Positions 1,287-2,214 of a DNA stretch of 5,729 nucleotides are shown piece by piece. Position numbers and translations under genes: made by a program. Positions within the stretch are counted from its first letter, which is position 1. Each line of letters begins with the position of its first letter. The notes under the pieces were generated by a model. It was not told the origin of the DNA and did no database searches. It was given only the letters and a program-made list of their open reading frames with translations. Source of the DNA: a virus. Taxonomy: Duplodnaviria > Heunggongvirae > Uroviricota > Caudoviricetes. The DNA lies in IMG/VR virus record IMGVR_UViG_2703718772_000022. One strand, written 5' to 3'.

Positions 1287-1673
1287 GCAACCTCACTTCT
1301 GCTGTTTCGCAGTTTTTTAAGTTTCTGTTGATACTCCGCCTTGATGGCCCTGCACTCTTCGACAGTCCAGCGATAGCGGTTATGGTTTGATTCGATTTCC
1401 TCTACTGCTTCCTGCCCGATGCGGCTAATCAGTTCGACGCGATACGGAACGAAAGGGCTTTAAGGCGAGTTTTCGAATCTTCAGTTTATCTTTCTGTTTC
1501 TGCTCCTCTCGTCGTAGTTTCTTCTCTGCTGCTTTTTCCGCTTTTTCGCGTTCTTTACTTCGTCGTTCGAGTGCTATCTTGGTTCCACAAATCTCATTAC
1601 ACCAATATTGATTTTGATATTTTGGTATAAACCATTCATTGCAACATTTACATTTCCTTCGATAGATTCGCAT
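1283..1673 (-). pseudogene. ninG: ninG/rap-like gene, disrupted: 5' part and 3' part lie in different reading frames with the central region missing
   Basis: From ATG 1671-1673 (AAGGAG 5 nt upstream) the ORF reads [47 protein letters not shown]...KLALKP, then FRSVSRRTD and a stop at 1425-1427. A frame shifted by +1 from about 1440 to TGA 1283-1285 reads [55 protein letters not shown], which is the NinG C-terminus as I recall it. Only 4 nt (TTTC) separate the last N-part codon from the first C-part codon. Together this gives about 130 codons against about 204 in lambda NinG. Confidence 0.6.
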
Positions 1674-2214
1674 AAGTGCTCCTTTCGTTGCCGGAAAAAT
1701 CACCGTAATACTTATCTCGGGCTTCTTCAGCAACTAGTACCGCTAACTCCAGATCATCAAAGCATCCGAAGTGTTTACTCTTGCCATGGAATCCTAGCCT
1801 AACATTCCATTTTTTCTGTCGTTTGTGCCAAGTAACCCCTCTGCAACCTGATTTGCTATTCTTTCGGATCCTTATATTTCTTGAATTTTCTATTGGCAGG
1901 CATTCTCTTAAATTTTCTGGCCTATTGTCGGTCCTAATTCCATTAACGTGGTCAATTTGACCAGCAGGCCAACGATTATGAGTTATGTAAAAAACTAAGA
2001 CGTGAGTTTTATATCTACGCCCATCTATCATGATCATTGAATAACCGTTGGAATCAAAAGTTCCAGCAACACTATTTAATGCTATCCTTCCCTGAGTGGG
2101 AACTTTCCATCTAAATACCCCGGTAGATTTATCGAAACTTAGTAACTCAAATATCCTTTTAACAGTTAAATCTTCTCTTTTACGGTTACATCGTCTTCGC
2201 GCTGGTTTAGCCAT
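1648..2214 (-). CDS. HNH homing endonuclease with AP2-like DNA-binding domain, 188 aa from the ATG at 2212-2214
   Basis: HNH-type core ([49 protein letters not shown]) followed by an AP2-like segment ([52 protein letters not shown]). The first nine codons (MAKPARRRC) are the lambda NinG N-terminus as recalled, so the gene uses the ninG ribosome-binding site (GGAGG) and start. TAA at 1648-1650. The six-frame ORF extends upstream to a GTG at 2293-2295; that extension is probably not translated. Confidence 0.8.

Follow-up and report, generated by a model that had tools for sequence, protein, structure and literature searches.

A putative HNH-AP2 homing endonuclease cassette in the 5' end of lambda-type ninG in Escherichia coli prophages

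How does an endonuclease gene come to begin with the first codons of a different phage gene? The question is raised by a stretch of viral DNA of 5,729 nucleotides (nt) (IMG/VR record IMGVR_UViG_2703718772_000022; the whole stretch is called the window here), in which an open reading frame (ORF) for an HNH endonuclease starts as ninG of phage lambda does. The window is part of a defective lambdoid prophage of Escherichia coli O111:H8/H-, which adjoins gyrA-yfaA; the matching strains, E2863 and 11128 among them, are 100% identical to it apart from one deletion. The genes of the phage early-right region all lie on the minus strand and run in the order ninE to Q. An initial annotation had proposed that a homing endonuclease entered the 5' end of ninG together with flanking sequence from a divergent ninG allele. 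We consider it probable (roughly 0.62) that the window holds a cassette built around a free-standing homing endonuclease, with an I-HmuI-like HNH domain and an AP2 domain, in the 5' end of lambda-type ninG. The cassette and its borders are laid out as follows.

2215..2230, minus strand: last bases of ninF and native ninG ribosome-binding region (ACGGAGGAAGAAGGCG), matching lambda CACGAGGAAGAAGATG; these bases now precede the endonuclease ORF.
2186..2214, minus strand: relic of the ninG start (ATG, codons 2-9 and following bases), 29/29 identical to lambda ninG; it serves as the start of the endonuclease ORF.
1648..2214, minus strand: endonuclease ORF with HNH_3 and AP2 regions, 188 codons plus TAA (ATG 2214-2212, TAA 1650-1648).
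1590..2185, minus strand: foreign block of 596 nt, 37.6% GC, in place of 64 nt of lambda-type ninG (codons 10-31).
1679..1685, minus strand: AAAGGAG, read from the sequence as the Shine-Dalgarno (SD) motif of the replacement ninG start; it lies within the endonuclease 3' end, with a 5-nt spacer to the ATG at 1673.
1590..1673, minus strand: divergent replacement ninG 5' end, 84 nt, 28.6% GC (ATG 1673-1671); its first 26 nt overlap the endonuclease 3' end.
1455..1589, minus strand: lambda-like ninG, codons 29-74 (...KLALKP), 133/135 identical to lambda.

Lambda NinG starts (M)MAKPARRRC, and so does the endonuclease ORF. At the left junction, 42 of 45 positions agree with lambda ninG/ninF; the 45 comprise the opening 29 nt of the ORF (2214-2186) and the bases upstream of them. 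The native ninG ribosome-binding site and ATG overlap the ninF stop codon and are now read for the nuclease. All loci hold a single 29-nt relic of the old start, in which we found one singleton variant among 56 loci. That MAKPARRRC is the resident ninG start, as the initial annotation had stated, is borne out by lambda itself and by the 21 of 58 IMG/VR loci in which an intact lambda-type ninF runs directly into the captured start.

Alignment to lambda ninG, a check that the initial annotation had named, mapped the limits of the foreign block to 1590-2185. The block (2185-1590) takes up 596 nt where lambda and a near-isogenic nuclease-free allele of E. coli B27 have 64 nt. In B27 the flanks of this empty site are nearly those of the carrier paired with it (374/379 positions identical on the left, 7 mismatches in 340 nt on the right). 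The replaced 64 nt, ninG codons 10-31, read AAACGATGAATG(C/T)CGGG...CCAGAG and are well conserved in 82 nuclease-free lambda-type alleles. To the right of the block, the window is lambda-like again from TGTGGAAC (1589) onward.

The block contains the body of the nuclease and the 84-nt divergent ninG 5' end with its own AAAGGAG-N5-ATG. A second, AT-rich ninG start with its own SD motif had been predicted, and it is present (AAAGGAG at 1685-1679, ATG at 1673). It had been placed immediately after the endonuclease stop codon; this needs correcting, because the ATG lies 26 nt upstream of that stop, the two ORFs overlap, and the endonuclease ORF ends in a frame other than that of ninG. At the DNA level the tract is identical to lambda at 44/84 positions (52%), with 9 gap positions and a 6-nt gap across the replaced segment. 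The N-terminus that it encodes is 45% identical to that of lambda NinG (BLASTP, E=8e-9), and its match to the Pfam NinG profile begins at residue 4, counted from the second start, and spans residues 4-76. The substitute end encodes the same four-cysteine N-terminal motif as lambda ninG in very different nucleotides. Its CxxC...CxxxC pattern is closer to the general NinG family than the CKNDEC of lambda is; the tract therefore looks like the genuine ninG start of an unsampled AT-rich lineage. The endonuclease stop codon (ATGTAA) sits at the tract position homologous to the left junction (..GATGTAA). Since the substitute 5' end brings its own SD motif and ATG, full-length NinG is still made in relatives of this prophage.

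What kind of protein does the ORF encode? Genome records label the gene only "HNH endonuclease." The HNH_3 domain is recognized by Pfam at E=4e-11 (42.7 bits, above the cut-off of 24.8), and the protein matches PHROG 99, "HNH endonuclease," at 1e-71. An AlphaFold model built from 13 homologues is confident (predicted local distance difference test [pLDDT] score, 86.7), and its best match in the PDB is the HNH homing endonuclease I-HmuI (1u3e), with a probability of 1.00 but an E value of 8e-3. In the model, residues 127-173 form three strands and one helix with pLDDT >90. This part superposes on the AP2 domain of AtERF1 (1gcc) with a root-mean-square deviation of 1.3 Å over 51 columns; the AP2 domains of WRI1 and TEM1 match as well, and these AP2 matches, to plant or apicomplexan domains, have probabilities of 0.99-1.00. 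The predicted fold thus argues for a C-terminal AP2 domain, to which the sequence match is marginal. The HNH-AP2 identity given in the initial annotation agrees with both lines of evidence, the HNH part by sequence and the AP2 part by fold.

The catalytic residues D88, H89, N101, and N110 are invariant across the 13 homologues. Only the two ends of the protein are poorly predicted, residues 1-10 (pLDDT 58) and 178-188, and both are encoded by ninG-derived sequence. The homologues begin 4-10 residues ahead of a conserved LxxLLxY helix and stop about 10 residues earlier than this protein, which fits a nuclease core at roughly residues 10-177. Apart from the captured ninG start, the ORF has no in-frame ATG before residue 59, and the nuclease therefore depends on that start. 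The ORF is intact in 59 of 61 copies, with a ratio of nonsynonymous to synonymous polymorphism (pN/pS) of about 0.29.

Outside the ninG cassette, no relative exceeds 47% identity. The closest ones (44-47% identical) are HNH genes that stand free in virulent phages, and one of these neighbors a gene for a T7-type endonuclease I. Two of the relatives, P0004 and P0007, were considered as neighbors of ninG and rejected, as they sit in T7-like or short virulent-phage contigs. A scan of one genome per species for the nuclease gave a sole match, 39% identical, in Planctomycetota. A group I or II intron was ruled out, given that no Rfam group I/II match was found at E≤1 and that ninG downstream has its own SD motif and ATG. 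By its sequence and modeled fold, the nuclease is a member of the HNH-AP2 homing endonuclease family, free-standing, with neither intron nor intein.

How widespread is the arrangement, and does ninG also occur without it? Among 5,426 complete E. coli genomes, 538 (about 10%) carry the nuclease block, at 571 places, with at most 3 per genome, none on plasmids and all at least 99% identical. The carriers include O157:H7, O26, and O111 strains. The block is also present in 57 IMG/VR prophage contigs, in Salmonella serovars, and in the Stx1 phages AU6Stx1 and SH2026Stx1, where ninG is intact. It is always located between ninF, or an AT-rich insertion, and ninG. Of the 58 IMG/VR loci, the 37 that do not have the intact ninF upstream have the same AT-rich insertion as the window. 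The junctions are the same in all related nuclease-bearing loci examined, and the sequences around them vary, with at least 16 upstream and at least 9 downstream contexts among carriers.

Nuclease-free ninE-ninF-ninG alleles are common in E. coli genomes, and they match a precisely excised carrier at 97-98% identity in one piece. The endonuclease is thus a presence/absence insertion in the 5' end of ninG, as the initial annotation had suspected; the endonuclease-free and endonuclease-containing alleles that it expected both exist, and empty sites with nearly identical flanks are abundant. Across 56 carriers, nucleotide diversity (π) amounts to 0.004 over the nuclease body and 0.002 over the substitute tract. 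In the 78 nt past the right junction it is 0.0465, and sites vary from +8 onward. Carriers have 21 haplotypes over the first 100 nt on this side, 5 of which are identical to nuclease-free alleles, and most of the others are 1-4 nt away from the nearest nuclease-free allele over 300 nt. The cassette is therefore polymorphic for presence or absence on many ninF/ninG backgrounds.

A few copies of the cassette are damaged. An IS3-family insertion sequence (IS) element lies within the endonuclease 3' end/substitute ninG tract in E. coli PK8241 (locus L119, 3050-4263), and an IS2 element lies in the same region in Z1323CEC0014 (L120, 1338 onward). Together with a 1-nt frameshift in the endonuclease of locus L062, these amount to cassette decay. 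Partial-match copies (H234 and H301) were considered as intra-cassette recombinants and rejected; both are IS insertions, of IS3 and IS2, respectively.

If the nuclease is active, how would the cassette spread? The nin operon would be transcribed during lytic growth and so give rise to the nuclease, whose translation would start at the ninG initiation region and be coupled to that of ninF. During lytic growth or co-induction, the enzyme would cut nuclease-free lambda-type ninG, in or near the replaced 64 nt, in co-replicating lambdoid genomes. The break would be repaired from the cassette-bearing genome, with crossovers on the left in ninF or the ninG start and on the right from TGTGGAAC onward, and the cassette would be inherited in super-Mendelian fashion. 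The divergent tract would shield carriers from self-cleavage, and NinG would still be made from the internal SD motif and ATG. The candidate target is the lambda-type segment AAACGATGAATGCCGGG...CCAGAG. The divergence of the tract (52% identity and the 6-nt gap) provides the sequence precondition for such resistance to cleavage. The replaced lambda segment contains GCCGGG, the substitute tract has 29% GC, and AP2 domains reportedly favor GC-rich DNA (PMC10448857); as a hint at the target, this is suggestive only.

Several observations weigh against the homing reading. By sequence, the AP2 region falls short of its family threshold (Pfam, E=1.8e-4 and 22.2 bits, under the curated cut-off of 33.3 bits). 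The right boundary is the same in every copy, and diversity reaches the level of the flank within 8 nt without a gradient, so that co-conversion tracts are not directly visible. The missing gradient fits very short tracts or long-term recombination, and no gradient is expected if a heterologous block can be resolved only in the flanking homology. Most carrier genomes hold a single copy of the cassette, and as many as 8-10 places in a lambdoid-rich E. coli genome match ninE-ninG; spread inside lysogens would be inefficient if carrier genomes also hold nuclease-free copies. Lambdoid mosaicism and the clonal expansion of Shiga-toxin-producing E. coli (STEC) alone could give much of the observed distribution. 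Lastly, a divergent tract free of the nuclease was not found in INPHARED phages with blastn and tblastn.

Is there a donor for the tract elsewhere? A degenerate codon pattern found no tract without the nuclease in IMG/VR, and a sensitive blastn search of the 5,426 complete E. coli genomes found none either, returning the same 538 genomes (569 places, versus 571 for the nuclease). No donor was found in a 5.8-billion protein word index, and a phmmer search found no close N-terminus among 1.84 billion protein representatives, the nearest others being about 50% identical. The neighborhoods of the two most similar N-termini (P0033 and P0040) were examined and set aside, as they have no endonuclease upstream. 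Because the tract is always linked to the nuclease, it appears to behave as a fixed part of the cassette, with an unsampled donor, and co-conversion from a divergent allele would be a past event. The proposal of homing with co-conversion thus stands in part. The insertion polymorphism and the near-invariant block on diverse flanks speak for it; its view of the tract as flanking sequence from a natural divergent allele is not borne out, in that the tract was never found without the nuclease. Separately, a second N-terminal type of ninG that is nuclease-free (P0025-P0027) joins lambda-like sequence around codon 46, which brings the allelic forms of the ninG 5' end in enterobacterial prophages to at least three.

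Does the cassette do more than sit beside its target? We tentatively consider a phage equivalent of the end-replacement homing of yeast WHO elements, in which the nuclease cuts the conserved zinc-finger-coding start of ninG and each homing event overwrites codons 10-31 with a recoded, resistant version, while the old start and ribosome-binding site are kept for the nuclease. On the present evidence this falls somewhat short of an even chance. If it is true, an endonuclease gene could live in a coding sequence without an intron, an intein, or loss of the host gene, and the remaining N-terminal types of ninG in E. coli phages might represent resistance alleles or traces left by previous invasions.

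The main rival, which we regard as unlikely, is a passive mosaic module. A single recombination event with an unsampled AT-rich phage, illegitimate or through short homology, would have brought in an HNH gene and a ninG 5' end, the nuclease would be inactive or would not target ninG, and the module would have spread by ordinary homologous recombination in the nin flanks and by STEC clonal expansion. Lambdoid nin regions are indeed highly mosaic, and other ninG N-terminal types exist without a nuclease. Insertions of other kinds are also known here, as other prophages have an unrelated gene of 270 nt precisely at the ninF/ninG junction and a separate AT-rich insertion has replaced most of ninF in 253 genomes. 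The fixed right boundary in every copy and a genome collection heavily biased to O157, O26, and O111 would fit a passive module too. It explains less well why the ORFs are so often intact (59/61, pN/pS about 0.29) with conserved catalytic residues, why diversity drops ten-fold exactly over the block, and why the nuclease belongs to a family made up of homing endonucleases. The position of the cassette also argues against a passive module: ordinary lambdoid insertions such as the 270-nt gene lie at gene boundaries, whereas the nuclease cassette lies 29 nt inside a coding sequence, over a conserved 64-nt segment.

It is improbable that the nuclease is a domesticated weapon, kept for the benefit of phage or host because it cuts competing lambdoid phages (marker exclusion or superinfection interference) and so not purely selfish. 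Purifying selection and wide spread in prophage-rich STEC would suit such a role, and homing-endonuclease domains have repeatedly been co-opted in phage conflicts (PMC10448857). However, PADLOC defense models gave only a negligible match (ZorE HNH, E=0.007), the prophage in the window is defective with its ninG already broken, and on present data such a role is mechanistically indistinguishable from homing. A packaging-associated HNH protein that works with terminase, as in cos phages such as HK97, can be dismissed: the plain annotation "HNH endonuclease" in a siphovirus-type prophage would allow it, but the subfamily is wrong (HNH_3 plus AP2, I-HmuI-like), the gene is located far from terminase in all contexts, inside the nin region with ninG on one side and ninF or the AT-rich insertion on the other, and it is absent from most lambdoid phages with the same packaging genes.

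Is the cassette functional in the window itself? The remaining features of the window are as follows.

5046-5228, minus strand: ninE; the ninF remnant is next in order.
~4985-5045 region, minus strand: ninF 5' remnant of ~50 nt, with a CAA→TAA change within it.
About 2300-5000, with ORFs on the plus strand: AT-rich insertion, 34% GC.
1453..1454, minus strand: deletion scar AA in ninG, from comparison with E. coli E2863.
1283..1452, minus strand: out-of-frame ninG 3' end (...NSRSEV), the end of the intact 603-nt ninG as annotated in E2863 and 11128.
1286-621, minus strand: ninI, whose start overlaps the ninG stop (ATGA).
624-1, minus strand: Q.

A further correction to the initial annotation is that ninG is not intact here. 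Over the catalytic core (residues ~75-145), 214 nt are replaced by AA at 1453-1454, and the frame shifts after codon 74, so that the window does not encode a full-length NinG with its C-terminal catalytic core. This deletion junction is absent from all other nuclease-bearing loci examined, including that of E2863, which is otherwise 100% identical; NinG is intact (200 amino acids [aa], a 603-nt gene) in E2863, 11128, and AU6Stx1, and the 603-nt gene is likewise whole in all other related loci. The deletion may be a mutation private to the source strain; otherwise it is an artifact of assembly or editing. The prophage is a remnant as well. Excisionase and integrase genes (xis and int) lie directly past ninE and a 114-aa ORF (E2863 11258-13313, beyond window position 5729), which means that the immunity and replication region is missing; immunity, replication, and ninB-D genes are absent from the prophage in the E2863 genome, and ninH is absent too. 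The 114-aa ORF, at window positions 5385-5729, belongs to PHROG 1229, of unknown function. Because the prophage has no early region and its ninG carries the private 214-nt deletion, the element in this window is probably inert.

The AT-rich insertion (~2.8 kb) has replaced most of ninF, leaving its first ~50 nt and last ~13 nt (2215-2227). This insertion context occurs in 253 complete E. coli genomes, never without the endonuclease cassette, and no complete E. coli genome joins it to an uninterrupted lambda-type ninG. The insertion is therefore probably later than the cassette, and the ninF ends kept in the window indicate that it probably entered ninF already adjoining the cassette. Two of its plus-strand ORFs, 2744-3676 (310 aa) and 3715-4542 (275 aa), correspond to the two halves of a single 590-aa gene, which AU6Stx1 has in intact form. 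A missing G near 3665 (ATAACAGGTTCGG to ATAACAGTTCGG) splits this gene in the window and in O111 genomes. The gene is PHROG 9230, of unknown function, with no match in Pfam or PADLOC. Between the AT-rich insertion and the endonuclease lies a perfect (AGAAAT)7 array (2413-2454), and the number of hexanucleotide copies, from 3 to 13 in 13 pattern-matched related loci, marks it as a variable-number repeat. The 270-nt gene mentioned above, which encodes a hypothetical protein of 89 aa, is found in some nuclease-free prophages (E. coli MMC-J-0105, locus L203, 651-920). It makes use of the site of the ninG ATG and forms a TAATG overlap with ninG anew, which points to the ninF/ninG junction as a recurrent insertion point.

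Homing endonucleases have mostly been studied in virulent phages such as T4, T7-like phages, and ICP1, and our literature search found no paper on a ninG-associated homing endonuclease. The layout described here is real; the kind of mobile element that it suggests is fairly ordinary, with a modest architectural twist, and its cutting activity is putative. If active, the element would be a directed driver of gene conversion among co-resident lambdoid prophages of STEC, and a compact case of a selfish gene that enters a coding sequence harmlessly by means of a captured host start codon and a recoded replacement. Lambda itself carries the putative target.

How does this element compare with known systems? 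SegF (gene 56/69) and SegG (gene 32) of phage T4 reportedly home without an intron, with cleavage and co-conversion said to have been demonstrated by experiment. In those systems as described, a part of the target gene next to the nuclease gene has strongly diverged from the nuclease-free allele, and this part and the nuclease gene are inherited together, as appears to be the case for ninG. Unlike what is said of SegF and SegG, the ninG stretch duplicates the start of the gene, and the 29-nt relic is kept and reused; cleavage and co-conversion here are putative.

HNH-AP2 homing endonucleases themselves are known from phages, cyanobacteria, and protists (Magnani et al. 2004, as cited in PMC10448857), and the "IPA-HNH" homing endonuclease genes of ICP1-like phages are of this kind (PMC10448857). 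The ninG element resembles them in its N-terminal HNH and C-terminal AP2 domains, as a small free-standing phage gene that is AT-rich relative to its surroundings and lies at a boundary of genetic exchange. It differs in that it is found in temperate lambdoid prophages instead of virulent phages, has no start codon of its own, and is fused to the first 9 codons of its target. A case closer in phage type is gene 31 of the P22-like lambdoid phage epsilon34, a putative HNH homing endonuclease joined in frame to the N-terminus of the resident eaE (PMC2629481). Unlike the ninG nuclease, it belongs to another HNH lineage, with relatives in phages of Gram-positive bacteria, it occupies another locus, and no replacement gene copy is described for it (PMC2629481).

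A likeness in mechanism is offered by the WHO elements of Torulaspora and Lachancea yeasts, which home without an intron or intein and swap one end of the target gene for the element's own copy at each integration (PMC7282813). The ninG cassette likewise brings a replacement end (84 nt) and leaves a relic of the old one (29 nt). The WHO elements act on the 3' end of FBA1 with an intein-derived nuclease and leave arrays of relics, whereas the ninG cassette sits at a 5' end with an HNH-AP2 nuclease and a single relic; the analogy is one of mechanism only, with no kinship implied.

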